Below the pieces are notes generated by a model. That model was not told the origin of the DNA. It ran no database searches and saw only the letters and a program-made list of their open reading frames with translations. A DNA stretch of 63,963 nucleotides, counting the filler. It is 3 parts of 3 records of this genome, joined end to end, with 100 filler letters (N's around TTAATTAATTAA, not from the genome) between each part and the next. Parts side by side here need not be neighbours in the genome. Positions count along the whole stretch, not along the records: positions 33,457 to 63,963 come from DRR723986_12913; 2 more parts are not named here. One strand, 5' to 3'. The position numbers were made by a program, and so were the translations under genes. Of this stretch, positions 8,057 to 52,541 are shown piece after piece; the stretch's first letter is position 1, and every line of letters starts with the position of its first letter.

Positions 8057-8057
8057 G

Positions 8058-33106: not shown

Positions 33107-33209
33107 TCTATCCATTATCGGCACGAGATATCGTTGCCTTGCAGGGGGCGCACCTCCCAGATATAGAGCGGAACATCATTCTATCAACCTTTTGCCTTGG
33201 TTTGGACAC

Positions 33210-33356: not shown

Positions 33357-33456
33357 NNNNNNNNNNNNNNNNNNNNNNNNNNNNNNNNNNNNNNNNNNNN
33401 TTAATTAATTAANNNNNNNNNNNNNNNNNNNNNNNNNNNNNNNNNNNNNNNNNNNN
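33357..33456. other. Artificial contig spacer
   Basis: 44 N + TTAATTAATTAA + 44 N. Confidence 0.98.
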
Positions 33457-33457: not shown

Positions 33458-33910
33458 GTTCCAGAGTGCCGAACTAAGGTTTGCACCTACCGAACTTGCA
33501 AGATGGTTTGCGAACAACGCACGAAGAACGTTTGCTACCGCACCTGCAAGATGGTTCCTGAGTGCAAGACTCAGACTTACACCGTCTGCAACTGGACCTG
33601 CGAAAACGTTTGCAAGCAAGTTCCTTACACTGTCTGCGTTCCAGTATGCGAGCAAAAGACAATCAAGGTTTGCAAGCGAGTTCCTGTTTGCGTTCCTTAC
33701 ACCGTAACGGTTTGCGTTCCTAAGGTTGTTTGCGAGCAAGTTCCTGTCGAAGTCAGCTGCGGATGCACCTGCAACGGCGGAAACGCTTCTCGCGGTGGCC
33801 TACTCAGCCGTCTTGCTGATCGCCTTGGCGGTCGACGAGCTGCTGGCTGCGGATGCGGAAGCTCTTGCGGCGGATGTGACAGCGGTTGCGACAGCGGCTG
33901 CGGATGCTAA
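33458..33910 (+). CDS. Cys/Val/Thr-rich repeat protein (3' part)
   Basis: Open from contig start; repeats VPEC.TK..Y.TCKM / VPYTVCVP; C-terminal GCGC..CDSGCDSGCGC. Confidence 0.75.
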   Translation, partial: VPECRTKVCTYRTCKMVCEQRTKNVCYRTCKMVPECKTQTYTVCNWTCENVCKQVPYTVCVPVCEQKTIKVCKRVPVCVPYTVTVCVPKVVCEQVPVEVSCGCTCNGGNASRGGLLSRLADRLGGRRAAGCGCGSSCGGCDSGCDSGCGC

Positions 33911-34958: not shown

Positions 34959-37900
34959 CTAGCGGCTGCGGGTTGGGATTTGCTTGATCAGTTCGGTGCC
35001 AGGTCTGCAGGCCGGGCTCCCGCCGCCCAGGGCCTCGATGTACTCGGACAGGATGCCTTGCGATTGCGAAATGTATCCTGACTTCAAGCTCTCCTGCAGC
35101 AATTGGCGGAAATCGGCATAGGAGTTACATGACTTGGCGTGAGACCAGTCAATGCTCGACGGGACTTCAAGAGCCAGCTCAGACAGTTCATGGCAGATAC
35201 ACTGGGCGAAACTTACGGCGGCCTGATCATCGGCATCCAAGAACACACTGCTCTTCAGCTCGATAACCTCGTTGACGATCCGCATGGAAACCTCGTTTGC
35301 AATCTGAGGGAGCCCGTCAACGAATGGGTATTTATCGTGCTTTTTAAATAAATCAGCGATGTCCAAGGCCAACTTGACGACTATGCTCACCAGCTTGGAT
35401 CTACCGCCAATTTGAAAAATGGCCGATGGTGATCCCCGGTGTAACTGCTGGCAACTGATTGCCAACGCGGCAAGGTGGGCGGCGTAACAGTGCTTTGTCG
35501 CTTCGCTGAAATCTTGTCCAAGTTTGAAGTCGATTTCATTGTTCAGCTCTAACTTACCGTCCACGATTGCCGCTACAAGGGAGCTGGTGGTCGTGGCGCG
35601 ATAATCTAAGGTTCCATAAACGTCGCGATTAACAACGCTGCAGACGGTTTCCAAGTAGGCAGCGGCGATGTCCGCGTTGGTCATGGACTTCTGAAGCCAG
35701 TAATTGCACTTTGCGCGCAATCGCTTTCGAGTCTTTTCTCGTTCGTGTCGATGATCTTGTGCTTCGTTAGCAGGGTGGCCTTGCAATTCCCAACTGCTGA
35801 GAACGGCATCAATGTTGTGGAGGGCTACCGTTTCGCCCGCAAATGATGGGAATCTGGATTCAGCGCTATTGCCCGTCCAAATCGACTCACCGTAAACATC
35901 GTCTTCGCGATAGCTTATTTCTTCGTAGCAAGCTTGAACGTAGGCCCGTTTTAGTCGCTTTTCAACCTCGCTAAGCAGTGGCTGCATTGCACCAGAATAC
36001 TCCGATGGATAGTGCTTGGACTGCGTCCAGATTTCAGCCTCATTCCAGCGGTGTATGTTGTTGCAAAGTCGGTTGCCGATGTGGTAACCGAGGTGCTGGT
36101 ACGCTTCGACCTGTTCGTCAGTGTAGAACTGGTTGGTCGTCGGCTCGTCTGGGAAGGAGGGGAAACAGTGACGGATTTGTTGGATCTCGATTGGATCGGA
36201 TTCCGTGATCGCCATCTGAGCATAGAAAAGGTAACCACATTCCTCGATCTCTGGATACTTGATCCTCATTGCCAGGAACGGTTGTGCGACCAATCGACGG
36301 TCATCTCGATTGAGGCGTCCAAAGTCGATGGGCGCATCATGGTCAAGGTCGAGGAATCGCACGCCCTGCTGGGAGGTCGCGTTGTGGCACATCTTGGCTA
36401 GTGACGAAAGCGTGTGTTCTCCTGCGTTAACGCCAGCATCGCTGACAATTATTAACTTGCACCGCCGGCGGATCAATTCATTGACGCCCAAGAAATCGTA
36501 GAAGCCGCCGTCGGCAACAAACGCTCGTGGCCACCGCTTAGAAGCTTCGGTAAGTTGGTCGCCCAGCGAGGCCGCGCTTGTGCCCTTCGGCAAAAACATG
36601 TTTGCGAGCAGGTAGGGGTAGCCCAAGTTGAAGCAGTGGCCGATCGCAAGCAGCACGCAAGTTGCGATGATTAGCGACTTAAGGATCAGACTGAGGCCAG
36701 TGAACGTGAGGCAGATGATGCAAACGGCAACCAGCACCAGAATGACAGGGCCCTTGTCGTGCGTCGTCTGACCACCTTGTTCAGAATCTGGATGCTGAAA
36801 TTTGAGCCACCTGCCGATACGGCCGCCGAAGAAATCCAGAATCGCGGCGAGAGCGATATTGTTGGTCATCAGTGGCGTAACTGCAGAACCACTAATCGCG
36901 ACAGCGTCCTTGAGCTTGATCGGGTCGTTGCTGACAGCTACCGCGGATTGTTCTTTGACTATTTCACCATCATGGGACGTAGTTCCGGCGACGTTCCGAT
37001 TCCAAAGGTGTACGCCGAGCGGCGTGCAGGTGACGTTCTCGGATTCGATTTGAAACGAGTCAGCGGCCTGATTGGGGCGTTGCCAGGTGGCTTGATAAAT
37101 TGGAAAAGGCAAACCGTGTTCGGTTGGCTTCAAGTCTTCGAGCATCGTTTCGCCGCAGAAACGACCGTCGGGTTGCTTCCTGAGAAAATGTGTCGCGATG
37201 CGGCTGCGGTAGAAGTAATAAGCGTAAACAATTGCGTTCAAATCGATTGTTGCCATCAGCCCGAAGGTGAGCAGGCTAAGCCAGACGACAAGCCAACGCA
37301 ATCGCGCCTGTTGGTCATGAGGTTGGATATAGTGGGTGCTCACGTCGTTGTGCGCAACGAGCAATTTGCCGCCTATGAGTTCGAGCAAGAAATGATTGAG
37401 CTCAGCGGTTTGCAGTTTCTGAAGAGATTCCGGGGCAGCAGCGATCCCATCCGCAGCACTATTGGGAAGCCGTGAAGAATCGGTCGTCTTGGATGCGTTT
37501 TCGTGATCGGGAGAAGACTTGGTGAAATGGAGAGCGTGTGCTTGCATCAGGGAACAGAATCGTTCACGGTTTGAGGTGCTCCAGCCGTGAAGGTGTGATG
37601 CTAGCCACTCGCTGTCGACAAGCAACTTTGGTGAAGCAGGCGGAACGCTTTGACTGGCATTGAACGAAACGCTCGCGCCTTCCCCCTCCGACTCAACACT
37701 AGCGGTTGCATCCCATTGGGGGGTGGCATTTTCTTGTCCTACAAACTTGATCTTCAATCGATCGATCAAATAATCCGTGAACGAGGGTTCGACCAAGAAG
37801 TTCTTGTTGAAATGGTCTACAAATTTGCTTTGCTTTTCGAGCATTTGCCGCGCTCGGGCGGATTGGTTGTCCGCGAGTACATCTGCAAATTTCGCCGGTA

Positions 37901-39599
37901 AGAACGAATACGCTGCGAGACGCGACATGCGGCCAAATCCTGATAGCTCATATTCTGGAGCTTGGAATTCTTTGGGAACCGCAGGTTCCGACTCTTCTTG
38001 AGCGGCATCACCGTAAAGGCTTTGAGCTTGGCCGTTGAGAATATTGCTAGCCAAGTACTTCCGGCTATTACTCGGTGACATTTGCCGCGAATAGAGTTCT
38101 CGATCCAATGCTTCGACAGGAAACCGTCGGTTGAATTCTGCGACTCGTTCTTCTCGATCGCGTTCTTTGCCGTTTAAGGTGGTGGCCTGTTGAGCGATGT
38201 GGTGCAGTCTTTTCCAGTCCGTGACTTCGCCACGGAGTAGAAATGGGTCGCGGTGGTTTGCAAACTGGCTTACGTTTTCACATGCCATTAGGTGGACGAA
38301 GGCGAAAAAGGCTACACCAACGACAGCAAAAGTAACCACAGATTGGAGAGCTTTTTGCCAGTTGGCGGCCTCGCTCTTTTCGCTTTTGAACAGGCGGTCT
38401 CGTCCAAGGAAAACGAGGATTTGAATTGCACCAGCGATTAGAGCAATATAGTTAGCAAAATAGTTTAGGTGTAGTTCGTTGTTTGTTCCGGTTCGGGCCG
38501 TAGTGAGGCTGTTGCCTATGCTGACGGCCACGGATGTGACCAAGAAGAACAACGACAAGAAAAGGAGTAGTCCAACTATGCGATGCGAGACCGTTCCGAT
38601 CTTCTTGAGCACCGACATAGCGTCATCGTTGTTTCGAAACAGTCGGTTGCTTGCTCGCAATAATGAGTCAAAACCGACGCTGATGACTAGCAGGATAGCG
38701 ACAGCCAAGGTTGGCAAGAACGAGAAGACAATCTCACCACCATCGAAAAAGCCAATGTCGTCCTCAACAACCATGCGGTAAACGGGCTCGTCGAAGCTGC
38801 GAAAGCCAAGTGCCAGGAGGGTGGCGATGGTGCCGAGCAAACCGATGTAGACGCACTTTGTTGCAACCTGGTAGCGGACGAAGCTGACCATTCCCTTCCA
38901 AGTGCTTTGGAGATAGGACCCGACGTTGGGCAGATGTTCGGCGTCTACCTTGCCGTTGTCAGGATTGACTCCCAGCCACCACGCCGGCTTGGGCGGTTCA
39001 TCGCAATCCGGATTGTCAGGGTTGGCTTCCGGCTTGGTGGCGTGGAAGTTCTGTGGCTGTTTATCTTTGTCTCCACCCTCGGCTTTCGTTAGCAGGTGCC
39101 CAGCGATATAGCCTCCTCCGGAGACGCTGCACAGGTAGTCGACGTAGCGGAGTAGACCACAGTGGGACAGTGCTCGAAGGAAGCCATCGTTAAACAGCGC
39201 ACTTCGCAGTCCGCCGCCGCTGAGGGCAAGCCCTACGACGTCAGTGAACTCCGAGGATTCTTCGCAATCGCTTTTATCCGTAACGCCTTTCGAATCACGG
39301 TCCTCGCAAGTTGCGGGGCCCTGTTCGGCGACTGGACTTGCGTTGCAGGCTCGCCCTTGGTGGGATTGCTCCTGCGGTTCGCCTGAAGAGCTGGCTGTAG
39401 AGGCACCAAAGGCGACTCGACGACGCTCTCTCAATAGCGCTTCTTCTGCCTGTTTCAAGTCAGCGAAACGGAAGAGCTTTTCGCCGGTTTCGCGGTCCTG
39501 TTGATTCGCACCAGGCAGGTTGTGTTCTTGGTCGGCTGCCTTGTTTGGGGCAGCCTTTGAGCGGGGCAAATGAGCATCGGGCTTGCTCGGTGAAGACAT
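34959..39599 (-). CDS. Very large multi-TM patatin/cPLA2-like phospholipase
   Basis: GLALSGGGLRSA oxyanion loop, SVSGG nucleophile elbow, AVAISGSA, ADGGFYDFLG catalytic Asp; many TM helices between the motifs; RBS GGAG. Confidence 0.85.
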   Translation of the reverse strand: MSSPSKPDAHLPRSKAAPNKAADQEHNLPGANQQDRETGEKLFRFADLKQAEEALLRERRRVAFGASTASSSGEPQEQSHQGRACNASPVAEQGPATCEDRDSKGVTDKSDCEESSEFTDVVGLALSGGGLRSALFNDGFLRALSHCGLLRYVDYLCSVSGGGYIAGHLLTKAEGGDKDKQPQNFHATKPEANPDNPDCDEPPKPAWWLGVNPDNGKVDAEHLPNVGSYLQSTWKGMVSFVRYQVATKCVYIGLLGTIATLLALGFRSFDEPVYRMVVEDDIGFFDGGEIVFSFLPTLAVAILLVISVGFDSLLRASNRLFRNNDDAMSVLKKIGTVSHRIVGLLLFLSLFFLVTSVAVSIGNSLTTARTGTNNELHLNYFANYIALIAGAIQILVFLGRDRLFKSEKSEAANWQKALQSVVTFAVVGVAFFAFVHLMACENVSQFANHRDPFLLRGEVTDWKRLHHIAQQATTLNGKERDREERVAEFNRRFPVEALDRELYSRQMSPSNSRKYLASNILNGQAQSLYGDAAQEESEPAVPKEFQAPEYELSGFGRMSRLAAYSFLPAKFADVLADNQSARARQMLEKQSKFVDHFNKNFLVEPSFTDYLIDRLKIKFVGQENATPQWDATASVESEGEGASVSFNASQSVPPASPKLLVDSEWLASHLHGWSTSNRERFCSLMQAHALHFTKSSPDHENASKTTDSSRLPNSAADGIAAAPESLQKLQTAELNHFLLELIGGKLLVAHNDVSTHYIQPHDQQARLRWLVVWLSLLTFGLMATIDLNAIVYAYYFYRSRIATHFLRKQPDGRFCGETMLEDLKPTEHGLPFPIYQATWQRPNQAADSFQIESENVTCTPLGVHLWNRNVAGTTSHDGEIVKEQSAVAVSNDPIKLKDAVAISGSAVTPLMTNNIALAAILDFFGGRIGRWLKFQHPDSEQGGQTTHDKGPVILVLVAVCIICLTFTGLSLILKSLIIATCVLLAIGHCFNLGYPYLLANMFLPKGTSAASLGDQLTEASKRWPRAFVADGGFYDFLGVNELIRRRCKLIIVSDAGVNAGEHTLSSLAKMCHNATSQQGVRFLDLDHDAPIDFGRLNRDDRRLVAQPFLAMRIKYPEIEECGYLFYAQMAITESDPIEIQQIRHCFPSFPDEPTTNQFYTDEQVEAYQHLGYHIGNRLCNNIHRWNEAEIWTQSKHYPSEYSGAMQPLLSEVEKRLKRAYVQACYEEISYREDDVYGESIWTGNSAESRFPSFAGETVALHNIDAVLSSWELQGHPANEAQDHRHEREKTRKRLRAKCNYWLQKSMTNADIAAAYLETVCSVVNRDVYGTLDYRATTTSSLVAAIVDGKLELNNEIDFKLGQDFSEATKHCYAAHLAALAISCQQLHRGSPSAIFQIGGRSKLVSIVVKLALDIADLFKKHDKYPFVDGLPQIANEVSMRIVNEVIELKSSVFLDADDQAAVSFAQCICHELSELALEVPSSIDWSHAKSCNSYADFRQLLQESLKSGYISQSQGILSEYIEALGGGSPACRPGTELIKQIPTRSR

Positions 39600-39837
39600 C
39601 AGGTTCTCCCCAGAATGATCGCTTCAGTTCGTTGGGGGGTATTCTTGCCCCTCTCGGCGGCTAATGCAAGCATTGCAGGTTGTTGCGTGGTCGATTTTCA
39701 CCAATATGCACCCCGCTCGGTTCTCCAAGGTGCCTGGTCGCTACGCGTTACCATGCGCCGGCGGCGATGAAATTGACCGAGAAGTGCACCGGCGGCTGAC
39801 GAATTTGGCGATTAAGGCGAACGACCGTTGCAGCAAG

Positions 39838-42342
39838 CTACTGCGTCCTCTGAAGACCAGCTTCGCTATTCGATTCAGTGCTCGCGTCGTTCGACTTGGT
39901 GTCCTCGTCATTTGACTTGGTGTCCTCATTGTCTGATTGGGCGGCGTCTGCGGTGCTTTGATCAAGGCCTAGTTTCGCCAAGACTGAGGAGTGGTACTTT
40001 TCCCACGCCGGTGCATATTGTTGGGCTTGGCGCGGTGTCAGCACCCAGCTCAACGGAGGTTCGAAGCGTTCGTCGTCGCACGTGAATGGAACATTGACTA
40101 CTTTGATCACAACGTTGCTTCCCGACGCCGTTCCGTTCAGTGCCTCCGCTAGTTGTGCCACTTCCAGGTTGCCTCGCTCCAATTGCGATGCAGTTCGCAT
40201 CGAAGCAAGCCCTTGCAGAGGTCCAGCGATCCATCGCAGAGATTCCCCAAAGTCGAATTTCTGCGGACGCCGTCGTCGGTCGTCTTTGCCTTTGTCGCCT
40301 GAGCTTGAAACTGGTGTTTGCTGTTTTGGTTGATACGGTTGAATCCGGATCAAGTAAATCGTGTGCGCGGGCGTGGAACTCTCTACCTCGTTCGCGTCTG
40401 GTGCCGATGCGGCGGTTGGCTCTTCTGCGGTTGGCTCGTCGTCGGCCTCGCCTTGGAGTGACTTTTGCTCCTCCGAGCCAGAATCGTCTGACTGCGAATC
40501 GGTTTGGGCGGATTGTGGCTGCAGGCTCGCTCGGAATTTCGTAATCCATTCGATGGCCGAGATAATTCCCTCGTTATCGATGTAACCACCGTCTCCTAGA
40601 GCGTATCGCGAAACTTCTTTCTGTTTTGCCTTGGATTCATTGCTGTCGGGCGTCGCGCCGACAAGCGGAGATACATATGGAAATGCCGCCGATGCGCGAA
40701 TTGCCGAAGAAACGCGAATCGTCTTGTTAGGGCCTAGCAAATCTTTGATCTGGAGAGCGAGCGTGTCTTCGCGAAACTCCATGCCGGTGTGTAGGACAGC
40801 TCGCTTGCCTGAGAGGATATCCATCGCTCCGAAGCAAACGACTGGCATTTGCCTGTTGCGCGCCAGTGCCTCCCACTGGTCCATTCGAGCACCCTCCAGG
40901 TACTGCTCAAAGTAGTCTTCCAATCGCTCGCCGCGCCCCTTTTGAAGTTCGCCAAACGGCAGCAGTCTGAACGGAAGCACAACTTTGCGAATGTCACCAT
41001 GCAAAAGCCCACGGCCAATTTGATCCAAGCCACCATTGGGGATGGTCCGACCAGGAAGCTCGCTGTTCGAATCTTCGGCGTCATCTGCCGCGGAGTTGGC
41101 AAGGGTATCCTTTAGGTAGAATGCCGCACCGACGCTCCCACCGGAGATTGCGCTGATGAAACGCACGTTCTTTCGGAATCTTTCATGCTGATGCAATTCG
41201 CTCAGGATCAGGTAGGACCATGCTGAGGCGTGAATGCCACCGCCGGGGCAGGTTACTACATAGGTTACTCCTGATTCCATCGGAGGGCTGATCGGCTCCG
41301 TGCGAAGTGCGACCTTGGTCTGAGGCTCGTCTTGAGCAATTGGCTGCAACTGGTCGCGATGTGGGCTCGTTGCTATCTTGGCGGCGCCGATCCACAGCAA
41401 GAAAACGAACACTACCGAGATTCGCCAGGACGAAAGCAGATCGCTCAAACCTGACAGGCCCATCGTAACCACTAGAATCACCAGCACGATCAAGGACGCA
41501 ACCGAGCTTGCTGGAGAAAGTAGCCAACTGTCGAAAACCGTCCATATGAAGGTGATCAAGAACAGCAGGTAGATAAGTAGCTGCCGATCGACATTGCCTG
41601 AACGGCTGGCTGCTTTGGTCGAACTTTGCCCCGAAATACTCCGCGAGAATGGGAAGTAGTAGCCCTTTACCAAACCACGGTTCAACCAGCGACGACTGCG
41701 AACGGTGAGCCATTCTAAGACCCAAAGCACAATCCAGCCGCCCATGACTCCCAGACAGGTGCTGAGAAGACTGACAAAAATCATCGTGTAACCGTCCAGC
41801 GGCTCAGGTTCGCTCAGTTTCTCGCGAGCTTGCGTCTTGGCTGTCTGGGCAGCTTCCTCGTCGGGCGTACCATGCACTTGCTCAATCGAATCGGTCGAAC
41901 TTGGCTGGAGCACAGCACTCTTGGTTTGCCCAAAGACAGCTCGCAAGCCTCCTTGCTCAACTGAAAACGATAACGCCGCAACCGGAGTCAGCATTGCACC
42001 CAAGCTGCAAAGGACGTACAGCCACATTGGCCAAGGGGACAATTGATAGTCGCTCCCCTTGTTGAGCGCCGAGTGCTTCATATGGTGCTCGAACAGTCGC
42101 CGCGCAATGACGACAGTGATCGCGACCGCAATCAGGTTTACAGCCGCAAGAAACAGCAACTGCACCTGAGAATGAATGTACATGACATTCGTCTCTTGAT
42201 TGCCAGGCTTGCCTGTCAGAACGTACCCAGCGAGGGTAAGAAGAATGAGTCCGAAAACTGGGAACCGGAGTGCTTCGGCCCGGAGGACGTGCGGCTTGAA
42301 AGGGTTGAGACGTTGTTTGATGTTCGTTACGAAATCGGACAT
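39838..42342 (-). CDS. Multi-TM patatin-like phospholipase
   Basis: N-terminal TM bundle; CPGGGIHAS, AISGGSVG, SAAFPYVSP, DGGYIDNEG; PPLSWVL; start MSDFV at 42342; 21-bp tandem repeat (39893/39914) near the C-terminus. Confidence 0.85.
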   Translation of the reverse strand: MSDFVTNIKQRLNPFKPHVLRAEALRFPVFGLILLTLAGYVLTGKPGNQETNVMYIHSQVQLLFLAAVNLIAVAITVVIARRLFEHHMKHSALNKGSDYQLSPWPMWLYVLCSLGAMLTPVAALSFSVEQGGLRAVFGQTKSAVLQPSSTDSIEQVHGTPDEEAAQTAKTQAREKLSEPEPLDGYTMIFVSLLSTCLGVMGGWIVLWVLEWLTVRSRRWLNRGLVKGYYFPFSRSISGQSSTKAASRSGNVDRQLLIYLLFLITFIWTVFDSWLLSPASSVASLIVLVILVVTMGLSGLSDLLSSWRISVVFVFLLWIGAAKIATSPHRDQLQPIAQDEPQTKVALRTEPISPPMESGVTYVVTCPGGGIHASAWSYLILSELHQHERFRKNVRFISAISGGSVGAAFYLKDTLANSAADDAEDSNSELPGRTIPNGGLDQIGRGLLHGDIRKVVLPFRLLPFGELQKGRGERLEDYFEQYLEGARMDQWEALARNRQMPVVCFGAMDILSGKRAVLHTGMEFREDTLALQIKDLLGPNKTIRVSSAIRASAAFPYVSPLVGATPDSNESKAKQKEVSRYALGDGGYIDNEGIISAIEWITKFRASLQPQSAQTDSQSDDSGSEEQKSLQGEADDEPTAEEPTAASAPDANEVESSTPAHTIYLIRIQPYQPKQQTPVSSSGDKGKDDRRRRPQKFDFGESLRWIAGPLQGLASMRTASQLERGNLEVAQLAEALNGTASGSNVVIKVVNVPFTCDDERFEPPLSWVLTPRQAQQYAPAWEKYHSSVLAKLGLDQSTADAAQSDNEDTKSNDEDTKSNDASTESNSEAGLQRTQ

Positions 42343-42636
42343 TGTGGGGCGTACTCCATCGCAACTAGCCACTTCGGTGTGTTTAGGGCCCAGAAGTGCT
42401 ACTACTTGCGGGGGAAGGGCAGGGAGTTTGGGCAAACAACCAGCGGTTGGGGCGTGAAAAAGGTGCGTTTTGAGCGATCTCAGAACATGTCAGTAGTTCT
42501 ACGGACTACAATTGACTGCACCTTCAGGGTTGTAACATCTATTTACACCCCTTTCAACTCCTCAAGGGGTTGCTTCGAACGTCGTGCACCTGCCCGTGCC
42601 TGTAATCCGCCCCACTTCTTATTGGAAGAACGCCCC

Positions 42637-44250
42637 ATGCTGATGCCCAAGCCTCGCAATGCGCTGCTGACCCTATGCTTCTCTATCGCGGCTGCGCTAC
42701 CAACCAACGTTTTCGCCGATCACCATGGACCGGGATGCAAGAACTGTAAAACGCATCACGACGCCGGCGGTGCTCAGCTACATGTGAAGCATCACGGACG
42801 CAATTTGCTCAGCGAACTACACAGTTTGAGCATCTTGCAGTTGAAAAATCCATGCCTCGCGCTGCTTGAGCAGACGCGACAACAGCAAGCGGGCGGTGTG
42901 AGCGGATTGGAGCCAGACAGCATCCTTGAGATTGCCAAAACACTTATGGAGAAGCTGGATTCCATTGAGAAGGCAGTCAAGGCTCCGGCAAGTGCGAAAC
43001 CTATGGGCGGTGCACCCGCTGCCGCAGCAAAACACGACTTCAACTCTGCCGATCAAATCCTCGAGCAGCTTCGTTCGATGCAATCGGAGCTCGATGAACT
43101 GCAGAAGAAGCTGCATGAAGCTCTCGAGAAAAAAGACCAAATCGTGAGTGCACTGCAAGATTTAAAGTCTGAACTCAAAACCGTGGAGACGAAGCACACG
43201 GCGATGCTAGCGCCAGGAGATTTCTGGAAAGCGTTGAAGGCTGGAGCGGACCAAACGGACGCGCCGACGCCAGATCAAGCAGTCATTGATACCGCTGTCG
43301 AGCAGTTGGACGCCTACGCAGAGTTGAAGTGCAAATTACAAACGCTTCCCGGTGAGATTGCGAAACGGGAAGCAGAGATTGCCGAGCTCGATAAGCAGGT
43401 TGAGCAACACAAGACTATCTATGAGCATGTGAAGCGGAAGCGTGACGGCATTCTGAATGCAAAGCAAAAATCGGCGCAGTTGGATGTTTCGGCACCGGGG
43501 ATTTCGAGTTCCAAGTCGATTTTTCGGTTAACTTCATACTCTGACAAGAACTCGAAACTCGCTGGCAAGGCTGCGAATCTGCCAGCACCGGCAGGGGAGG
43601 GCAAGCACGTTCCTAGTACCGCTTCACATCAAATCGCCAAGAACAGTCCCGCACCTGCGCAACGGCTCTTGGCGGAGTTGGCTTCAGGTGTGCAAGGCAG
43701 CGAAGTCCAGCGGGCGAAGATTAAGGCATTCTCGGATCTGTCGAAAAAGAACGCGAGGGATTATTTCGAAGCGCACGAACAAATCGTAGAAGCGGCCGAT
43801 GCATGGAAGTCTGACAAAGTCGTAACGTCTTGCGTCTTCGACCAGCCCGCGACCTTTCAAGATCCTGGGCGAGCATACGAATCTGGCTCCAGTGCAGTTA
43901 TCCGTGAAGGGATGCGGTTCTCGTCCGATGGGCACGGCAATTGGACTTTGGAAGCACCGTATACGGCTGGGCTGAGTCCATCTGAGATTCATATGCAGCT
44001 ACGAATCACGATGGCGGATTACACACAGCAGACTCTGACGCTCAAGCCGATTTGCTTGCCAGCGCGGTCTCCTTGCCAAACCAAAGGATGCACGGGGAAC
44101 GCACCTTGCGCGACGAGCGATCATTCTGCCTGCAGTTCGACGTTGAAACTCAAAGGCTATTTGCCAGCACTGGACAATAGCAACGGAGTGTTCGAAAGCG
44201 TCGACCGCAAAGGTTACGCCGTCTACGGTGAAGCTTACTCCGCGAAGTAA
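42637..44250 (+). CDS. Exported coiled-coil protein with Cys/His motifs and C-terminal beta domain
   Basis: Signal peptide ending VFA-D; HHGPGCKNCKTHH; long heptad region; start 42637 avoids overlap with the patatin gene. Confidence 0.75.
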   Translation: MLMPKPRNALLTLCFSIAAALPTNVFADHHGPGCKNCKTHHDAGGAQLHVKHHGRNLLSELHSLSILQLKNPCLALLEQTRQQQAGGVSGLEPDSILEIAKTLMEKLDSIEKAVKAPASAKPMGGAPAAAAKHDFNSADQILEQLRSMQSELDELQKKLHEALEKKDQIVSALQDLKSELKTVETKHTAMLAPGDFWKALKAGADQTDAPTPDQAVIDTAVEQLDAYAELKCKLQTLPGEIAKREAEIAELDKQVEQHKTIYEHVKRKRDGILNAKQKSAQLDVSAPGISSSKSIFRLTSYSDKNSKLAGKAANLPAPAGEGKHVPSTASHQIAKNSPAPAQRLLAELASGVQGSEVQRAKIKAFSDLSKKNARDYFEAHEQIVEAADAWKSDKVVTSCVFDQPATFQDPGRAYESGSSAVIREGMRFSSDGHGNWTLEAPYTAGLSPSEIHMQLRITMADYTQQTLTLKPICLPARSPCQTKGCTGNAPCATSDHSACSSTLKLKGYLPALDNSNGVFESVDRKGYAVYGEAYSAK

Positions 44251-44690
44251 CATGTTCGGCCCAGGACGCCGAAGCAGAGTGCAAACTACCTATTGTGGGT
44301 GGCTCCCACAGGTGCTTGTTAAAGTGTAGTAATTGTACGGATTCTATTGATTATTCCGGCAGGGTGAGACGATAGTCCTACAGCGGGATGGGATTTCCGC
44401 AACGCCCCAGCGAAACTCTTGCCAATTTAGCAGTCCTAGTTGCCACGACCGACTGCATCGGTGCTTGAGATTTGACTCTATTTGCCGCTGTCTACGACTG
44501 AATTGTCATCAGCGTGCGGCTGGATTCGCACTTGCTCGGGCAAACCTGTTGCCACTTCTGCCAAGCCCTTGGTGCTCAACCAGCAAGTCTCCATGGACGG
44601 ACGTAACTTGCCCAAAGCCCCAGCTCGGCCAAAGTGCCCACTTGCCCAGTTTCACATCGCGCCGCCCCGGCGTGAGCATGGAGGTGCGTT

Positions 44691-47600
44691 TTGCGTCAGC
44701 TAATTGTTCTAGTTGTTGGTCTGATGTTGATCTTTGGCTGGGCGACACTGGTTCGAGCGCTTCGTTCGCAGGCCAAGAAACCAGCAACCGTAACTGCAAA
44801 ACACACCGTCGACTCCAGAGAACCTCGGCGTGTTCCCACCGAGTCCAAAGCACGCAGGCTACGGAGCGTTCCACCTCGCGTAGACGATTCAGCCACTGAC
44901 AAGACTGTTACGACGGATCAGGTTCAGGTGGCAGACCAGGTCTCGGGGGCTGATCGAGTTACCGGGGCTGACCAGTCGGCTGCAATACACCGAACCGGAA
45001 CAGAGTATCGGCAGTCAGTCCCCGTCGCGCGGCAGAGCGGTGGTGATGTTGTTTCGGCTTCCTTTTTTCAGCCACCTCAGGTTGGACGGCTTGAAAAGAT
45101 TACGGACGATTCGGGAGTGATTTGGGATGCGGAGTCGCTAGCCAAAAATCGCAATTCCATTCTGCTCGCCGGAGTTAAGCACGACAAGATTGAACCAGGC
45201 GGGAACAATGGATACGAAATTGTCACCGAAGCAGGAACTGCACTGTCGGATCCGATTTCACTTGGCAGCTACGAAATCGCTGTGGTCGACCGGAGTGGCA
45301 ACACCTCACAACTCTTTCAAGATGCTAAGAACGCTGGATTGACCTACAACCTGCACGTCGGAATGCGGCAAGATCTGTCTGCCGACAACGTGTTTAAAGT
45401 CGGTTTCGGGGATTCTCCGTTGTTGGACCCAATGGCGTCGCATTCAGTCGCCGTTCTCGAGACAGCCAACGATGCACTGCAAGTTAGGCTTTTGATGAAA
45501 CGTGATTCAACCCGTCGTTTCATCGTCCTTACACCAGATGGAACGAGCACTGTTGTTGCCCAAACTCGGCAGCCTGCAGGAGTCAACCGAGATGATTTGC
45601 TTGAGTACGTCATACCTGTTGCATTCAACAGTGAGTCGGACGAGTACAGGATTGCTCCCGTCAGAAACGACGGTAGCACGCTATCGTTCGCGCAGCCAAT
45701 CGCGCTGAAAGCGGTAGATCCTGGAATGGGGCATGATGTCCAGTTTCCGGACGCCCCGAATAGCATCAGCCAACGCAAGAGCGGGAACGGTATTGATTTG
45801 AAGGCGACAGTGCCTAGCACTTCGCCGATCACGTTTGCCGAGGTAAAGCACGTTGCGAGCGGCGTAGTTCATCGCCAGGCAGTAAACTCGAACGGCCAAG
45901 AATTGTCTTTTGACTTCGACCTTCCGGATGGATCGCACACGCTAGAGGCGCAGCTATTCAGCGGAAACCGTGCACTTGGATCGACGGCCACGTATCAATT
46001 TGAAGTGCATAGCACGCTCAAAGTTGTCAGCTACGGTCCCAGCGGTTTCGGCACTTTCGCCAGTGGTCAGAGCATCAAAGTTCATCTAAATCGTGCGGTC
46101 AAAGATGAAAATACAGGCCAAATGGTGGAGCTCGACGAAGCGCCAGATGGAGTCACCACCGCATCTACCACTGTGAGTGGCTCCACCATAACGATCAACT
46201 TGAGCGGCGAAATCGTTCGCGGAGAGTACAAGATTCGGCTGAGGGGTGAACATATCACCGACGCCATTGATAACCAATTGCAAGGCAATGACGGAGTTGC
46301 TGGGGAGGACTACGTCTTTACCCTTGGCAGTCCGAGCGAACTTGGGCAGCAACCGGTCCGTGGCATCGCTGGCCGTCGCGCTGAACAGGTTGAGTATCCG
46401 CAATTCCTGACTTCACAGCAGGATACGTCCGGGTTCAATCCCAATGATCGTGTTGAAACCAGAGTTTCGCGACTTTACTTCTATCGTGATGCTCATCGCG
46501 TAGCACAGATCATCAATCGAATGGTCGATTCTTACAATAAGCACGGTGTTTCTGCTAGCCAAACGCTCGCCCGACAAGCACGCATGGATGCCGATAAATC
46601 GACGACCGATCGTCTGGCAGCGGAACGAAAGGCGATTCGCGACGCTGAACAAACTCGTGCAATCCAACGCGACTTGTCCGTCGCTCAGAGTTCGTTGGAT
46701 ACTTCGCTTCGGCAACTTGAGCAAACGTCGCTGAAGCTGAATCTTGCCCGCGCTCGAGCGGCTCAATCGCAAAATGCAGCCGAACGTCAGGCAGCCGAGA
46801 CTGAAGTAACGCAGAACGAAGCCTTGGTAGCCCAGCTCGAAAATTCAGCTCGCACGTTCGACAACCAAATCAACTCCTACCAACTTCAATTGCAACAATT
46901 GCAGGTTAAGGAGGCTGAATCTCGGGAAGAAGCTCTGCAACTGCAACGCGAGGAAGAACTTAACCGCGTTGAGCAATTTCGGCTTGAGGCCGCTCTGGGA
47001 CACGCTGATCCGGATACCTACGCTCCTGGGAACCCAGAGAGTATCGACCCGGTAGCCCAAGTGAGCATTACGGTGATTGGCGAAGGACTTCTGCACCTGC
47101 GAGGTCCATTGAAGGGGCTGAACAAGGTTCGCATGATGATCGATCAAATCGATGCACCTCAGGGGCAAGTTGCGGTCAAGGTGCATTCGGCTCAGATTAA
47201 CGGTGACGAAGCTGAGCATCTGGAGGTGGTTGCCAACAGGATTCAAACCTACATCGACCAAGCTCGATTCATGACAACCCAGTCGGCTGAGATGCTGCGG
47301 AAGAGTGTTGTGACGGTCGCGGCGCAGCGAGCAGAACAGGCACGGGCAATCTATCCAGGGATTCGCCAGGAGGATCGAGATCGACGGTATCTGGATGCTT
47401 TCTTCGGTGCTGATTTTATCCAGGAGCTGGATGCCTGCGACTCTGAATTGCTTCGTACCGGCAACAAACTATTGTCATTGCACAGCATGGACGTGACCAG
47501 CCTAAGCCACGCTTTGTTGTTGATTTCACTGGCTAAGAACTCCACCCGACTCGAGATCCTGGAGGAGTTCCAACGGCGGTTGAGCGAAGAGTTGCCAATT

Positions 47601-50600
47601 GCCGAGGCTCAGTACATACGAAACGGCATTGGCTGTTGCACGGGCGGATGTAAGGAAGGCTGCAAGCACCACAATGCGGCACCTCCGGTCTGTTCGATGG
47701 CCCAAAATGCTACCTTTACCAGCCTAAGAGGGTTCTTCGACACGCAGCTAGCATTCGACGATACGATGACGCCGATGCAACGCGAAGTCATCAAGCTGGC
47801 TCAGATCCTGCGGGCTCGATTGATCTCTGAAAAGGAGCTGAAGCAAAGGATCAACGATCGAAGCGTCGTTGAAAGCCGATTTGCTCAATCCGGCCAGCAA
47901 GAGCAATTTCGACAGGAGCTAGAGAAGAAGGCTCGCGAAGAACTCCAACATGCTCTATCCGCACATCAAACAGCTCAGTCAGAGCTTGGAGCCAAGATCC
48001 CACGAATCACTGGTGAACTACAGCGATTTAAGGGAGCAGTTGGAAAGATTGAACCAACCATCGTCCGCTTGGGATCTCTCATACGACGCGTGTTGTTACC
48101 ACGACTGAACGACGGCACAACGACCGAATCGTCGCTTGAACGAATCGATAGAGCGCTTTCCTATCTGGATCGGTTCGAGCAAAGGAGAAACGCAATCTTC
48201 GAAATGCTACCCGCTGGCGACTTGCGAGTGGAAGATGCATCCAAAGAAGTGCAAGGTGCGAGCAGGCCAGTCTATCTCCTGATGTACAAGCCTAAGGATT
48301 TTGGAGTCAGTGATGACCCCGATGCATATATTTACATTACCGGCAATCCCGCTGAGGGAGAAGACGCAGCGGCCTTGATTCGGAACCTGGTCCGAGCTGT
48401 CACAGCGATGAAGAATGCCAATGTCGCACTAAGTGACGAATCATTCAAAGACGTTGTGGCGATTGGCGAGTCCATCGAGCAGAACCGAGTCGAACGACAG
48501 GCTGTGCTTTCTGCGATTAACCAACTCTCGGCAACTGCAACGGTAATGCCTCAAGGTCAGGAACCACTGATTTCACTCAAGCACCTGAACGAGATTCTCT
48601 CGCGAATGGTGGATCTGCTCGCCCGGTATCAAGAAGACATTGGGGCGATCGACAACATGGATGTCGCTCGGCGAGATCTATCGTACGCGTTCGAATGCCT
48701 GACCGAAAATGCTCGGCAGGGCATCCTCGAGATGGAGGATGTCGAGAAGATCTTTACCAGTTGGTCCGCTTTTGAGCAAAACCTGAAGAGTGCTTACAAC
48801 AAGAATCCTCCAGCTTCGGTTCTCGCACCGCTCAATGATGTTGAGCGAGCACTTGAAAGCTTGAGTCAGGCGTTCAGTCGGCTTGATTCTGCCAGGGCGA
48901 TGGCGGCGCAGGCGAAAGCGCCGCTGGATCACAAAAAATTCCTGGATATGTTCATCGACGAAGAAGAAGAACAGTTGATCGAGTTGCTCGAGGGAACCCG
49001 AGCTCACACGGCCAACATAGACAACTACTTGAAGCGGATCACGACGGCTCTGGATGACGACTTCAACCGGCAATTCTATCGACCATCCCTAGGGCTGATT
49101 CGAACCGCCAGCCAGTACAAACGCGTTGAGTTCGGACAGACGGAGGAGACCAGCGTTTTGGCGAACAATCGTGCGTTCGCTAAGGTTTCGCCATCGGCAA
49201 CGATGGAATTCGATCTACCGAAGCGAGACATCCTCTTGAAGGAAGCCGTCGATGGGATTCTGGCGACCTACAACGATGTTGGCGCTTTGTTGAACGATCC
49301 CAACTTCCTGGCCCTTGTCAAAATGCAAGCCGGAGGTTCCGCCTTGGGGAGCGTTGGCGATGGAGGATTTGGCGTTGTGCAAAACGTACTGCCAGGATTG
49401 CAAAGCGATTCCACTGAACAAGTCGTCTCCAGGCACTCGGGGGCAAGTCCTGGCTTCGGATCCGAACTTGAAAAGCTGATGAAGGATCCTGCGATCTACA
49501 AGTTTGAAACGGGAACCGGCTACGAGATCCGCCCCGTCATCGCACCTGATGGACAGGCCGTCGTCTTCGATTTCCACTACCTCTACACCACGCAAATCCG
49601 TGAACCCGTGCGAGCTGATGAAAAGCACCTTGGGAGAGTCAAGCGGCATTTGATCGACACCGATGTGCAACTCTCAAATTTTGAACTTCGCGAAGTTAGT
49701 CGCTACACAGTTGCACTGAAGGCCGAGAGAACAGCTCGTGGAGTGCCGTTGCTGGAGGATATTCCCGTGGTTGGCGTGCTGTGGCAACCGCTGCCGAATC
49801 GCGAAAAGTCGTTGCAGCAGAACATCATTATGGCTCAAGCAACCATCTTCCCAACTCTATTCGATCTAATGAACCTACGCTGGGCACCAGAAGTGGCTGA
49901 GCTGGATCCGTTGGCGATGTCCGAGAGAGAATTCGTGCGTGACAATCGCAACCGACAGATTAAGACCTACATCGATGGCGTAACACGCTCTTACGTCGAC
50001 GATTCACTCGGCATTCCCAATAGTGCTCGACGCCAAGATCTTTACTCGCCACAAGCCACCATTCCTCGGCAGCATCCAAACGGTTACTCCGGGCCAGGCA
50101 TGCACTATCGATACGCTCCCATGCGAGAAGGCCACAATACGCAGGCAACAACGCCGAACGATATCCCGCTGCGTTCTTCAGAGGGTTCGCCCATCCGCCA
50201 GCCGCGACCAAGTTTCCCAATCGTGCCGCAAGGTTCCTTGAACGGTCAGTCCGGCGGGATGGGAAGCGTGCAAACTCACTCCAATTATCATCCTGGGGCG
50301 ACTGCAACCGACGGCTATGTGCCTGCATCTGATGGCTTCAGAACGGTCCAGCCGTTGCCTAACCAAGACTATCTACCGCTTCACGGCGGCGGCGGAACCC
50401 AGGCAAAACCAACACTGATCCAGCCCGAGCAAGTTGACGCGCGGCCGATTGTCGAACCGCTTCGTAAGCCTCAGCCGATGTCGTCCGGGTCGCAGGGGAC
50501 GACGATCCTGCAGCCGCCACTGGTACCAGAACCCATCCTTAAGCAAGCAAAACCCTTTGTTATTGACCCAAGCAACAGCGGAGCGGACGGCTGGGAGGCA

Positions 50601-50630
50601 GGCAAAGTCGATGTCAGGCTTGGCAAGTAA
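44691..50630 (+). CDS. Giant (1979 aa) secretin-family protein with Ig-like domains and large helical insertions
   Basis: GGAGG RBS before TTG; N-terminal hydrophobic helix; N3-to-core junction LHLRGP..IDQIDAPQGQVAVKV; core motifs TSVLANNRAFAKV, TGTGYEIRPVIAPDG, IDTDVQL, GVPLLEDIPVVGVLW, NIIMAQATI. Confidence 0.8.
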   Translation: MRQLIVLVVGLMLIFGWATLVRALRSQAKKPATVTAKHTVDSREPRRVPTESKARRLRSVPPRVDDSATDKTVTTDQVQVADQVSGADRVTGADQSAAIHRTGTEYRQSVPVARQSGGDVVSASFFQPPQVGRLEKITDDSGVIWDAESLAKNRNSILLAGVKHDKIEPGGNNGYEIVTEAGTALSDPISLGSYEIAVVDRSGNTSQLFQDAKNAGLTYNLHVGMRQDLSADNVFKVGFGDSPLLDPMASHSVAVLETANDALQVRLLMKRDSTRRFIVLTPDGTSTVVAQTRQPAGVNRDDLLEYVIPVAFNSESDEYRIAPVRNDGSTLSFAQPIALKAVDPGMGHDVQFPDAPNSISQRKSGNGIDLKATVPSTSPITFAEVKHVASGVVHRQAVNSNGQELSFDFDLPDGSHTLEAQLFSGNRALGSTATYQFEVHSTLKVVSYGPSGFGTFASGQSIKVHLNRAVKDENTGQMVELDEAPDGVTTASTTVSGSTITINLSGEIVRGEYKIRLRGEHITDAIDNQLQGNDGVAGEDYVFTLGSPSELGQQPVRGIAGRRAEQVEYPQFLTSQQDTSGFNPNDRVETRVSRLYFYRDAHRVAQIINRMVDSYNKHGVSASQTLARQARMDADKSTTDRLAAERKAIRDAEQTRAIQRDLSVAQSSLDTSLRQLEQTSLKLNLARARAAQSQNAAERQAAETEVTQNEALVAQLENSARTFDNQINSYQLQLQQLQVKEAESREEALQLQREEELNRVEQFRLEAALGHADPDTYAPGNPESIDPVAQVSITVIGEGLLHLRGPLKGLNKVRMMIDQIDAPQGQVAVKVHSAQINGDEAEHLEVVANRIQTYIDQARFMTTQSAEMLRKSVVTVAAQRAEQARAIYPGIRQEDRDRRYLDAFFGADFIQELDACDSELLRTGNKLLSLHSMDVTSLSHALLLISLAKNSTRLEILEEFQRRLSEELPIAEAQYIRNGIGCCTGGCKEGCKHHNAAPPVCSMAQNATFTSLRGFFDTQLAFDDTMTPMQREVIKLAQILRARLISEKELKQRINDRSVVESRFAQSGQQEQFRQELEKKAREELQHALSAHQTAQSELGAKIPRITGELQRFKGAVGKIEPTIVRLGSLIRRVLLPRLNDGTTTESSLERIDRALSYLDRFEQRRNAIFEMLPAGDLRVEDASKEVQGASRPVYLLMYKPKDFGVSDDPDAYIYITGNPAEGEDAAALIRNLVRAVTAMKNANVALSDESFKDVVAIGESIEQNRVERQAVLSAINQLSATATVMPQGQEPLISLKHLNEILSRMVDLLARYQEDIGAIDNMDVARRDLSYAFECLTENARQGILEMEDVEKIFTSWSAFEQNLKSAYNKNPPASVLAPLNDVERALESLSQAFSRLDSARAMAAQAKAPLDHKKFLDMFIDEEEEQLIELLEGTRAHTANIDNYLKRITTALDDDFNRQFYRPSLGLIRTASQYKRVEFGQTEETSVLANNRAFAKVSPSATMEFDLPKRDILLKEAVDGILATYNDVGALLNDPNFLALVKMQAGGSALGSVGDGGFGVVQNVLPGLQSDSTEQVVSRHSGASPGFGSELEKLMKDPAIYKFETGTGYEIRPVIAPDGQAVVFDFHYLYTTQIREPVRADEKHLGRVKRHLIDTDVQLSNFELREVSRYTVALKAERTARGVPLLEDIPVVGVLWQPLPNREKSLQQNIIMAQATIFPTLFDLMNLRWAPEVAELDPLAMSEREFVRDNRNRQIKTYIDGVTRSYVDDSLGIPNSARRQDLYSPQATIPRQHPNGYSGPGMHYRYAPMREGHNTQATTPNDIPLRSSEGSPIRQPRPSFPIVPQGSLNGQSGGMGSVQTHSNYHPGATATDGYVPASDGFRTVQPLPNQDYLPLHGGGGTQAKPTLIQPEQVDARPIVEPLRKPQPMSSGSQGTTILQPPLVPEPILKQAKPFVIDPSNSGADGWEAGKVDVRLGK

Positions 50631-50685
50631 CGCTGGCAAATGCCGTGATGATCAAACTTAAGTGTGGGTTAGACAGGTAATTGTT

Positions 50686-51702
50686 ATGTCCGAAGAAAAG
50701 TCCTCAAGCGTCACTTCGCAGCAAGGCATGTCACAGTGCGGCAGATCGCAGCACGTCACCTCACGGTGCGGCGGCTTTGCCCAAATGTCGCGTCGGCGTT
50801 TGCTAACACTTGCCGGTTCCCTCGGAGCTGGCACGGTGGTCTGGTTGAGCAATCAGATTTCGTCAATCGCATTGGCTGACGATTGGCTGACCCATCGCAG
50901 TCGAGGGCATCGTGCAGTTCGTTTGCGAGGTGTGCCAACTGCCGATTACCACTCGCGGAAACGCACCGTCTCATTCTTCGCCAGTACGCAGCAGGCGACC
51001 GAGAGGGCCACGGTCAAGACGATCGAACAAAAGATTGAAGCGAGTCATCGGCGGGCCGACCAGCAGTTTGCGGCCACGCGACTAAGCAACGCTGAGACCA
51101 TTCAGCCCTCCGGCATTGTCTCCCTGCTGCCAAACACTGCTAGTCTTCCCAGGCCAGCCGCCGTCGCGACGCTTACGCCAAGTGCCTCAACGGAGTTGCC
51201 TGCGGCAGCAATGGTTCCAGCGGACCGCAAGGAGTTTTTGCTAGCCACGGCGAGTTTCGGGCAAGCGCCGTTTTCTGTCGGTGGCTTTACATTGAGAATC
51301 GACGAAAAGATGAATTGGTCGGTGTCGCTCAGAGCTGAGTATGTGGCGACCGATAGTAGCAACAGGCCGATCGCTGAGTTGACCAACTTGCGACACCAGT
51401 TCCAAGTAGCGGTCAGGCTGTACGCGAATCCGCCATCAGCGTTTGCCCCCACGCAGCCTTCCGCCGGGACCGCTTCGCTGGCATCGCAGTTTACCAACGT
51501 TGGCCATATCGCTGAAATTGCACTGGAACCGTTTTGGGTGGAACGCGATCAACCGCTGCGAATCGAGTTTCGAGGCACCGGTGGGCCGGAACATCGTGAA
51601 ATATTCTCGCTGGCCAGGTTTGCTGAGGTCGAGTTCTTTGTGTATCTGGACGCGTTCTCGGGAAGAACGACGAAGACAATCCAAGGGAGAACACTGAGAT
51701 GA
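50686..51702 (+). CDS. Tat-exported hypothetical protein
   Basis: SRRRLLTLAG twin-arginine motif, hydrophobic stretch, ALA-D site; 30-bp imperfect duplication at 50716/50746 in the leader. Confidence 0.7.
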   Translation: MSEEKSSSVTSQQGMSQCGRSQHVTSRCGGFAQMSRRRLLTLAGSLGAGTVVWLSNQISSIALADDWLTHRSRGHRAVRLRGVPTADYHSRKRTVSFFASTQQATERATVKTIEQKIEASHRRADQQFAATRLSNAETIQPSGIVSLLPNTASLPRPAAVATLTPSASTELPAAAMVPADRKEFLLATASFGQAPFSVGGFTLRIDEKMNWSVSLRAEYVATDSSNRPIAELTNLRHQFQVAVRLYANPPSAFAPTQPSAGTASLASQFTNVGHIAEIALEPFWVERDQPLRIEFRGTGGPEHREIFSLARFAEVEFFVYLDAFSGRTTKTIQGRTLR

Positions 51703-52541
51703 ATAATTCACTTTGGACCCGCTTAAGTGATTGTCGGTGCCGCATTGCACTGGTCGCGTTGGCAGCGCTTGTGCCTTTGCTGCAATCCTCCTGTTGCTTT
51801 GGGCAGGTCAACGGGCGGGAGCAATCACCTTCAGGGCGTCTGACATCGCAGGTTTCGCCTGCACTTGAAATTGAAGTCCTCGATCCTCATCGCGACCCTA
51901 AGGGGAATCCTGCAATCCAACTTGGCAAAACGGAACAAGGATTTACGCAGGTTGATATTGCACCGAGCGTTATTGTGCATCGGTACTACTACACAGGTGA
52001 CCGTAGTTTTCGCGGCCCCGAATTGCCCGGTGGACCAACGGTAGTTGTTGTCACCAACCCGCGAACTGGGGAGCGGTGTTATATCGAAGTGCAGATGTTG
52101 CCCGGCGCTCCGCAGGTACACTATACACAGCATCGCATCGAATACGATTTTGGCAACCGAGCTATATTGCTAGACTTCCCATGGCGTGGTTCTCCGAAAG
52201 TCAGCGTTCGCAATGGAAGGCCGCTCACTGAAAAGGTGGCTGGGGCACTTAAGTTGAATGCAATCAAGTCAGCCGCGGTGAAGACGGGGGCTATGGCAAA
52301 AGCTGTAGCTAAGAAAACGCAAACGGCTGTTCGCGGTGCGGGGATGGCATTTGGCGAGATGACACGCCCTATCACTCTGCCGATGCAAAACCTTGCTCGA
52401 ATGATGCCAGGAGCGGCCATGTTGACCGACCCAGATTTAGAAGCGCGAGTCGTTGAAGCTCAGGCCATCCGACAGGCCGACGCTGAAGCATTCCGAGTCC
52501 AGACACTCAATTCACCAGACGTCGACATTTTAAGGCGTTGA
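51699..52541 (+). CDS. Exported hypothetical protein
   Basis: ATGA coupling to the upstream gene; signal-like N-terminus; VIVHRYYYTGDRSFRGP beta-rich domain. Confidence 0.75.
   Translation: MNNSLWTRLSDCRCRIALVALAALVPLLQSSCCFGQVNGREQSPSGRLTSQVSPALEIEVLDPHRDPKGNPAIQLGKTEQGFTQVDIAPSVIVHRYYYTGDRSFRGPELPGGPTVVVVTNPRTGERCYIEVQMLPGAPQVHYTQHRIEYDFGNRAILLDFPWRGSPKVSVRNGRPLTEKVAGALKLNAIKSAAVKTGAMAKAVAKKTQTAVRGAGMAFGEMTRPITLPMQNLARMMPGAAMLTDPDLEARVVEAQAIRQADAEAFRVQTLNSPDVDILRR

Follow-up and report, generated by a model that had tools for sequence, protein, structure and literature searches.

Results

A divergent locus encoding a giant secretin-like protein

This analysis concerns a divergent six-gene locus at 34959-52541 of a 63,963-nucleotide stretch of DNA (the window), and in particular its gene P0004 (44691..50630, + strand), which encodes a giant secretin-like protein of 1979 aa. 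The open reading frame (ORF) calls returned all six genes as the initial annotation had described them. Leftward lie P0001 (34959..39599, − strand, 1546 aa), a facultative neighbour of the conserved genes described below, and P0002 (39838..42342, − strand, 834 aa from the ATG at 42342, with a maximal ORF reaching 42435), both coding for membrane patatin-like phospholipases. Rightward, beyond the P0002/P0003 divergent intergenic region (42343..42636, no strand), follow P0003 (42637..44250, + strand), P0004, P0005 (50662..51702, + strand) and P0006 (51699..52541, + strand). A promoter and terminator scan gave fewer sites than in shuffled sequence, with no excess in 42343..42636.

The upstream partner P0003 begins with a signal peptide and ends in a conserved domain of about 135-150 aa, between which lies a variable stretch resembling a coiled coil. 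It most likely starts at the ATG at 42637, giving 537 aa with a signal-peptide-like N-terminus, rather than as the 735-aa maximal ORF that overlaps P0002, and the start of P0002 is probably the ATG at 42342. P0004 begins with a TTG at 44691, six bases behind a GGAGG at 44680-44684, and contains one hydrophobic segment, which is N-terminal. Between P0003 and P0004, 440 bases (44251-44690) are untranslated, with hairpin-forming stretches at 44255-44311, and this gap might act as a terminator or attenuator, or form a long leader; the gaps before the giant gene in relatives measure about 100-500 bases.

The two downstream genes encode predicted exported partners, signal peptides having been assessed by eye and hydropathy. 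P0005 spans at most 346 aa, with alternative starts at 50686, 50728 and 50786, and P0006 spans 280 aa and is translationally coupled to P0005, as initially annotated, through a 4-base ATGA overlap at 51699-51702. P0005 had also been described as exported by the twin-arginine (Tat) route, and the locus protein does carry SRRRLL; among its sampled relatives, however, 7 of 15 have a twin-arginine motif, so that the motif is not a trait of the family. P0006 is the best-conserved partner, with the motifs VPPSLEIEVLDP ... HRYYYTGDRSF.

The giant family is patchily distributed in Planctomycetia

P0004 had been called an orphan secretin, which does not agree with the search results: a sequence search retrieved 495 relatives, the best 120 of them with 54-75% identity over the C-terminal region, and a C-terminal profile run against 1.84 billion representatives delimited a closed family of 581 members at E ≤0.001, of which 526 reach E ≤1e-10. 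The members seen are all labelled 'hypothetical', except one with an automatic GspD name. Literature searches turned up no publication on the giant secretin-like family, and the available portions of PMC3422733 and PMC11131199 contain nothing specific to it.

A scan of one genome per species yielded 150 relatives, and the best 80 loci span Pirellulales, Planctomycetales, Gemmatales and Isosphaerales. Carriers of relatives include Roseimaritima ulvae, Roseiconus lacunae, Stieleria sp. and Gemmata algarum. In a phylum sample 3 of 301 genomes had a match, in a family sample 16 of 121 and in a class sample 23 of 201, each sample including the carrier at its centre; these figures are lower bounds because only part of the first-look candidates was scored. 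The giant form itself was present in 13 of the 121 and 20 of the 201 genomes, the remaining three matches in each of these samples being short relatives, and is nearly always a single-copy gene. The giant family is patchy, occurring in about 10% of the Planctomycetia genomes searched (a lower bound).

The short relatives form a secretin-like family of 820-888 aa (L093:6435-8897(-), L094:6127-8793(+) and L095:5872-8478(+)), and share both conserved blocks with P0004, together with a helical stretch between the blocks. Neither P0003, P0005 and P0006 types nor a patatin gene were found near them, and the L094 member is coupled to the next gene, a DUF1207 gene at 8790-9770.

Four genes form the conserved unit

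Gene neighbourhoods were compared by calling and clustering ORFs in the locus contig and in 61 loci with a length of 9 kb or more, and all 80 loci were then searched with a hidden Markov model for each family, the counts being limited to loci with enough flank. In 56 of the 58 loci that could be evaluated, genes of the P0005 and P0006 types come immediately after the giant gene and share its strand. The two exceptions are L073, in which both types stand directly upstream (6350-8152), and L077, in which neither occurs within 5.9 kb downstream. In L080 a P0006-type gene is directly upstream of the giant gene (7219-8031). A P0003-type gene directly precedes the giant gene in 37 of the 44 loci with sufficient flank; the others are L007, L011, L013, L056, L073 and L080, which lack it, and L039, where it is located at another place. 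L057 is counted among the 37; a fusion of upstream partner and giant gene considered for this locus was rejected, as the two are overlapping ORFs in different frames. The partner types thus almost always co-occur with the giant gene. The conserved unit is therefore four genes (P0003-P0006), kept across four Planctomycetia orders, and not the six-gene block initially annotated, of which P0002 recurs beside the cassette only in L001.

The upstream genes fall into four BLAST clusters (c3, c4, c10 and c18), which have in common with P0003 the C-terminal domain of about 135-150 residues (hhalign probability 98.1-100%). A profile alignment (hhalign probability 80.3%, E 1.4e-5) suggests that this domain and the C-terminal domain of P0005 are possibly distant paralogues, and the P0006 family is unrelated to the P0003 and P0005 families. 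None of the partner families matched Pfam, NCBIfam or any solved protein, and profile searches by sequence reached no relative of the partners among solved structures.

Architecture of P0004

The layout of P0004 was derived from conservation over 46 full-length relatives and from a first AlphaFold model. In order, it comprises a signal/anchor segment, an immunoglobulin-like (Ig-like) variable region, a conserved block, a coiled coil, an N3-like unit, a helical module, the core, a helix and a tail. Residues 120-560 (45048..46370, + strand, as for all P0004 regions) are variable, with identity of 0.10-0.29, and give an Ig-like Big_5 match at residues 443-543 (E 7e-4, below the cut-off). The conserved block at residues 560-680 (46368..46730), containing RLYFYRDAHRVAQIINR, has identity of 0.35-0.53, and no Pfam family was matched by this block in 42 members. 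The N3-like unit at residues 780-845 (47028..47225) is conserved and ends in IDAPQGQVAVKVHSAQING; it aligns with the junction between N3 and the secretin domain of canonical secretins, weakly (hhalign E 0.0099, probability 4%).

The helical insert that follows, of about 630 residues (846-1479; 47226..49127), has conserved ends and a variable middle at 1080-1400, and is modelled at a predicted local distance difference test score (pLDDT) of 70-92 over most of its length, including one helix of about 108 residues (1028-1135). Conservation is highest in the secretin-like beta core with GVPLLEDIPVVGVLW, at residues 1480-1730 (49128..49880), where identity reaches up to 0.87. Past it lie a confidently modelled C-terminal helix at residues 1740-1773 (49908..50009; pLDDT 78-93) and a variable, Pro-, Gly- and Gln-rich tail at residues 1801-1979 (50091..50627).

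Two AlphaFold models were compared with known structures. Model 1 (residues 760-1770) shows a small strand-strand-helix unit ahead of the junction motif, and its Foldseek search gave long-helix matches only, with a template modelling (TM) score of at most 0.1. Model 2 (residues 1470-1800) has a mean pLDDT of 50.4, and Foldseek returned no match for it at E ≤0.001; the first three ranks were GspD, PulD and ExeD, none of them significant (E 0.25-0.30, TM 0.14-0.18), with InvG and PilQ lower in the list, the secretins listed spanning E 0.25-0.9. VIA-align of model 2 against 48,161 chains gave a best Z of 6.0, for a single-helix match.

The C-terminal core is remotely homologous to secretins

Secretins are the outer-membrane gates of type II secretion systems (T2SS), type IV pili, type III secretion systems (T3SS) and filamentous phages. 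Several lines of comparison connect the C-terminal region of P0004 with them. First, C-terminal fragments of 42 of the 46 family members match the Pfam Secretin family (PF00263, curated cut-off 27.5 bits) at E ≤0.1 below that cut-off, the best at 7.1e-6, always over about positions 56-162 of the 169 in the model, and Secretin is the sole recurrent Pfam family for this domain in the 46 members. Second, when five carrier genomes were searched in all six frames with the Secretin model, sub-cut-off matches of 21.2-25.5 bits fell within the giant gene in four of the five. Third, the short relatives provide a bridge, as one aligns to residues 1416-1722 of P0004 (32% identity, E 4e-38) and 750-975 (E 2e-23), and another scores above the Secretin cut-off (32.4 bits, E 8.4e-8). 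Fourth, profile-profile alignment with 12 canonical planctomycete secretins brought out two colinear motifs, IDxPxGQVxVxVH (weak) and VP.L.DIP..G.LF.

Since the fragment matches, the genome scans, the short-relative bridge and the profile-profile motifs agree, we conclude that residues ~1480-1730 represent a genuine but very divergent secretin core, in a full-length protein that falls below the curated standard. The remote homology of this core to Secretin, being consistent across the family and linked via intermediates, is credible. Of the '1979-aa secretin' of the initial annotation, the length and the remote homology of the core thus stand, while the firm label does not.

A number of observations weigh against assigning P0004 to the secretins. 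Full-length P0004 does not match Pfam Secretin at E ≤0.1, and its fragment 1470-1800 scores 15.2 bits (E 0.017) against the required 27.5. The model is matched at about positions 50-165 only, that is, over its C-terminal two thirds; the candidate for the first strand, QVAVKVHSAQING, is separated from the core, on its N-terminal side, by about 630 residues, and its alignment is the weak one of the N3-like junction. No Secretin_N-type or other consistent family was detected in 42 fragments covering residues 545-875. The C-terminal profile does not merge with canonical secretins, as only 55 of its matches fall between E 1e-10 and 1e-3, and solved secretins were not reached by sequence from P0004 or from the family profiles. 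The structural comparison adds that the beta core is modelled at pLDDT <50 in both AlphaFold models, and that VIA-align ranks PulD 49th for model 2 (Z 4.9, root-mean-square deviation 5.8 over 107 residues).

Other searches with the protein gave little else. Against Pfam, full-length P0004 yielded the weak Big_5 match only, and against NCBIfam a match to the tail of SctC only (E 0.0098). The hits of P0004 and of the profiles A1, A2, A3 and A4 to solved structures were rejected, consisting only of coiled-coil noise or of summed repeats in designed propellers.

Motor genes are not found at the cassette loci

The window consists of three contigs of apparently different origin, joined by spacers (44 N, TTAATTAATTAA, 44 N) that were located by script at 27483-27582 and 33357-33456. 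The composition profile shifts at about 28 kb, the GC content being ~34% in 1-27482, ~60% in 27583-33356 and ~54% in 33457-63963, and features are not to be read across the spacers. The giant-gene locus is entirely within the third contig (33457-63963), and 'nearby' therefore covers just 1.5 kb to its left and 11.4 kb to its right. Over that range the initial statement that no ATPase, platform, pilin, T3SS or phage gene accompanies the locus was borne out, as family scans for ATPase, platform, pilin-operon, T3SS and phage families detected none on this contig.

The relatives extend this result. Seven diverse T2SSE ATPases from carrier genomes, which gave 32 cross-matches among themselves as a positive control, had no match in the 80 loci (1,279,969 bases) or in the locus contig; the sampled homologues are thus not placed beside the ATPase of a T2SS or type IV pilus operon. 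Among 47 representatives of the neighbour clusters there was no ATPase, platform protein or prepilin peptidase. The five scanned carrier genomes have the giant gene either over 100 kb away from the nearest T2SSE gene or on a contig that contains none.

We consider a motor-less secretin-type module with dedicated exported partners the best reading of these data, and hold it with somewhat better than even confidence. The most serious rival is that P0004 is a secretin served by a motor encoded elsewhere in the genome, with P0003, P0005 and P0006 in roles like those of PilN/O/P, GspC or a pilotin. That motor genes could work from elsewhere is a further point against our reading, and spare motors do exist, as each carrier genome contains 7-17 T2SSE and 4-10 Secretin matches. 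Separation is not unusual in these genomes either, given that only 7 of 17 strong canonical secretin matches in the five carrier genomes lie 2-8 kb from a T2SSE gene. Moreover, prepilin- or pseudopilin-like DUF1559/N_methyl genes occur in five cassette loci (L003, L010, L036, L071 and L077); however, the DUF1559 family is hugely expanded in planctomycetes, and these five may therefore be chance. A remote motor is also at odds with the lack of any T2SSE gene in all 80 loci, with partner families that match no Pfam, NCBIfam or solved protein, and with P0004 itself, which is unlike pilus or T2SS secretins in having no recognisable N0-N3 set and in its 630-residue helical insert. We thus regard a motor supplied from elsewhere as possible, at a probability well below that of the motor-less module.

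Several of the strong canonical Secretin matches in the genomes G001-G005 belong to open frames of 1286-2225 aa, and secretins of the canonical kind that are very long are therefore common in these bacteria.

Patatin genes are optional companions of the cassette

Both leftward genes carry patatin motifs, as initially annotated, and P0002 exceeds the Pfam Patatin (PF01734) cut-off of 27.7 bits with a score of 34.3. P0001 scores 25.1 bits, below the cut-off, while relatives of it reach 36.2 and 34.9 bits. In P0001, GGGLR at 128, SVSGG at 158 and DGG at 1030 mark a catalytic domain split by a long insert into halves about 870 residues apart; in P0002, the corresponding motifs are GGGIH at 367, ISGGS at 398 and DGG at 584. 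With 8 and 7 hydrophobic segments, respectively, both are multi-pass membrane proteins.

The link between patatins and the cassette had been put forward from adjacency at this locus, and it holds for one of the two genes. Genes of the P0001 type were present at 13 of the 80 loci, and at 10 of the 36 that have 6 kb or more of flank to the left and to the right; their strand and their side of the cassette vary. Ten genomes contain 1-4 such genes in 5.6-8.8 Mb, and chance adjacency is therefore estimated at about 1-2%. In G007 and G010 two patatin genes stand side by side near the cassette, like at the studied locus, and in G003 and G005 a patatin gene lies about 40 kb from it. Therefore, the link of the P0001 type to the cassette is real but optional. 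For P0002 the link fails, its one relative beside a cassette belonging to L001, the closest relative of the locus.

Other genes of the contig

The rest of contig 33457-63963 holds genes for a YTV protein, LOR, a metallo-beta-lactamase, DNA-alkylation repair, a CCG/Fe-S protein, CsrA, a TIM-barrel enzyme, a BBP7 porin and a sulfatase, with no secretion or pilus gene among them. The Cys-rich YTV-repeat protein is encoded at 33503-33910. The CsrA homologue (57099-57488, 129 aa) is covered by its Pfam model over residues 1-47 only and has a long C-terminal extension beyond. The BBP7-type putative porin (59074-60984) has a long N-terminal half that is Gln/Pro-rich and Cys/Gly-rich.

Discussion

A self-contained envelope module is proposed

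Building on sequence conservation, the maintained order of the genes, the remote homology of the core to secretins and loci that contain no motor genes, we propose that P0004 may be a very divergent, exported member of the secretin superfamily. Its C-terminal beta core (~1480-1730) would be inserted in the outer membrane, where, like secretins, it would presumably form a multimeric ring, while the Ig-like and conserved N-terminal domains would hang into the periplasm, and the helical module of ~630 residues would be placed between the N3-like domain and the beta core. P0003, P0005 and P0006 could serve as dedicated exported accessory subunits, P0003 and P0005 with a common beta-rich domain and P0006 from an unrelated, well-conserved family. 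Together, the four genes would constitute a self-contained envelope module that is passed on jointly in a minority of Planctomycetia and lacks a dedicated pilin operon, platform protein or secretion ATPase, and for which a P0001-type multi-pass membrane patatin lipase may be a frequent, optional companion. Ring formation, membrane topology, partner binding and transported cargo are the inferred elements of this proposal.

An alternative is that P0004 is mainly structural, a tether, fibre base or surface crown, in which the core would be an anchor or ring scaffold and the helices and Ig-like domains would span an enlarged periplasm or project from the surface. More than 1200 of its 1979 residues lie outside the secretin-like core; the helical module is confidently modelled, with its ~108-residue helix, and is joined by Ig-like and coiled-coil regions; and a mainly structural role would suit a giant gene with no motor genes found near it. 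Planctomycetes also possess structures to which such a protein might belong, namely crateriform structures, described in PMC5394234 as outer-membrane complexes that bear 12-nm and 6-nm fibres, touch the cytoplasmic membrane and are of unknown composition. On the other hand, the core is the most conserved part of P0004, which fits a working channel. Crateriform structures are, to our knowledge, near-universal in the class Planctomycetia, and the cassette was found in about 10% of the genomes searched. We therefore consider a mainly structural P0004 doubtful. The cassette as a universal gene set for crateriform structures was set aside because of its patchy occurrence.

The motor-less module can be extended into a fuller picture, in which P0004 would form a motor-independent secretin machine with a helical crown or stalk, onto which two paralogous beta-domain partners and a third would dock, the whole serving macromolecule uptake or surface structures, as a trans-envelope portal or as the base of fibres, in the planctomycetes that carry it, while membrane patatins remodel lipid around it. 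The helices might then extend up to ~16 nm, as estimated from the modelled helix of ~108 residues. The players in macromolecule uptake are still called unknown in a 2025 review (PMC12673574). The patchy ~10% occurrence weakens the tie to surface pits, fibres and uptake proposed in the initial annotation, and in its entirety this picture is improbable, slightly more so than a mainly structural protein.

Least likely of all is that the cassette and the patatin lipases make up one lipid-directed system for outer-membrane lipid turnover, vesicle release or lipase delivery: the frequency of P0001-type genes near the cassette far exceeds chance, and the adjacent pairs in G007 and G010 and the patatins ~40 kb away in G003 and G005 would suit it, but 26 of the 36 well-flanked loci have no patatin gene nearby, the strand and side vary, and proteins with 7-8 hydrophobic segments are unlikely cargo for an outer-membrane channel.

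What makes the motor-less module of interest is the combination of a secretin-derived core within a protein three times the usual size, a conserved partner trio of its own and loci without motor genes, in four Planctomycetia orders. If P0004 is a working channel, the range of jobs done by secretins would be widened, and planctomycete envelope biology would gain a concrete gene set.

Comparison with known systems

The patatin-like phospholipases (PF01734) resemble P0001 and P0002 in the glycine-rich loop, the serine motif and the DGG, and differ from them in that both locus proteins are multi-pass and the catalytic halves of P0001 are widely separated. With regard to the systems in which secretins are known, the giant gene is, at the loci examined, not encoded with the ATPase, platform or phage genes of T2SS, type IV pilus, Tad, T3SS or filamentous phage.

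The closest known counterparts are the T2SS secretins GspD, PulD and ExeD. The core of P0004 matches positions ~56-162 of the 169 in the Secretin model, including VP.L.DIP..G.LF, its model has these three proteins as top, non-significant Foldseek matches, and a conserved helix follows the core in P0004 as in them. In contrast to them, P0004 stays below the Secretin cut-off, lacks recognisable N0-N3 domains, places ~630 helical residues before the core and is about three times longer, and no GspC-M, ATPase or pseudopilin operon was found at the cassette loci.

The canonical secretins of the same genomes (L081-L092) come from the same organisms, and some lie in very long open frames (1397-2225 aa) like that of P0004, whereas they score 120-166 bits on Pfam Secretin and stand, in 7 of 17 cases, within 2-8 kb of T2SSE. 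Finally, the short planctomycete secretin-like proteins (L093-L095) are without the N-terminal half with its Ig-like region and the greater part of the insert, have none of the giant's partners nearby and include one that passes the Secretin cut-off, and yet they share with P0004 both of its conserved blocks and the helical stretch between them.

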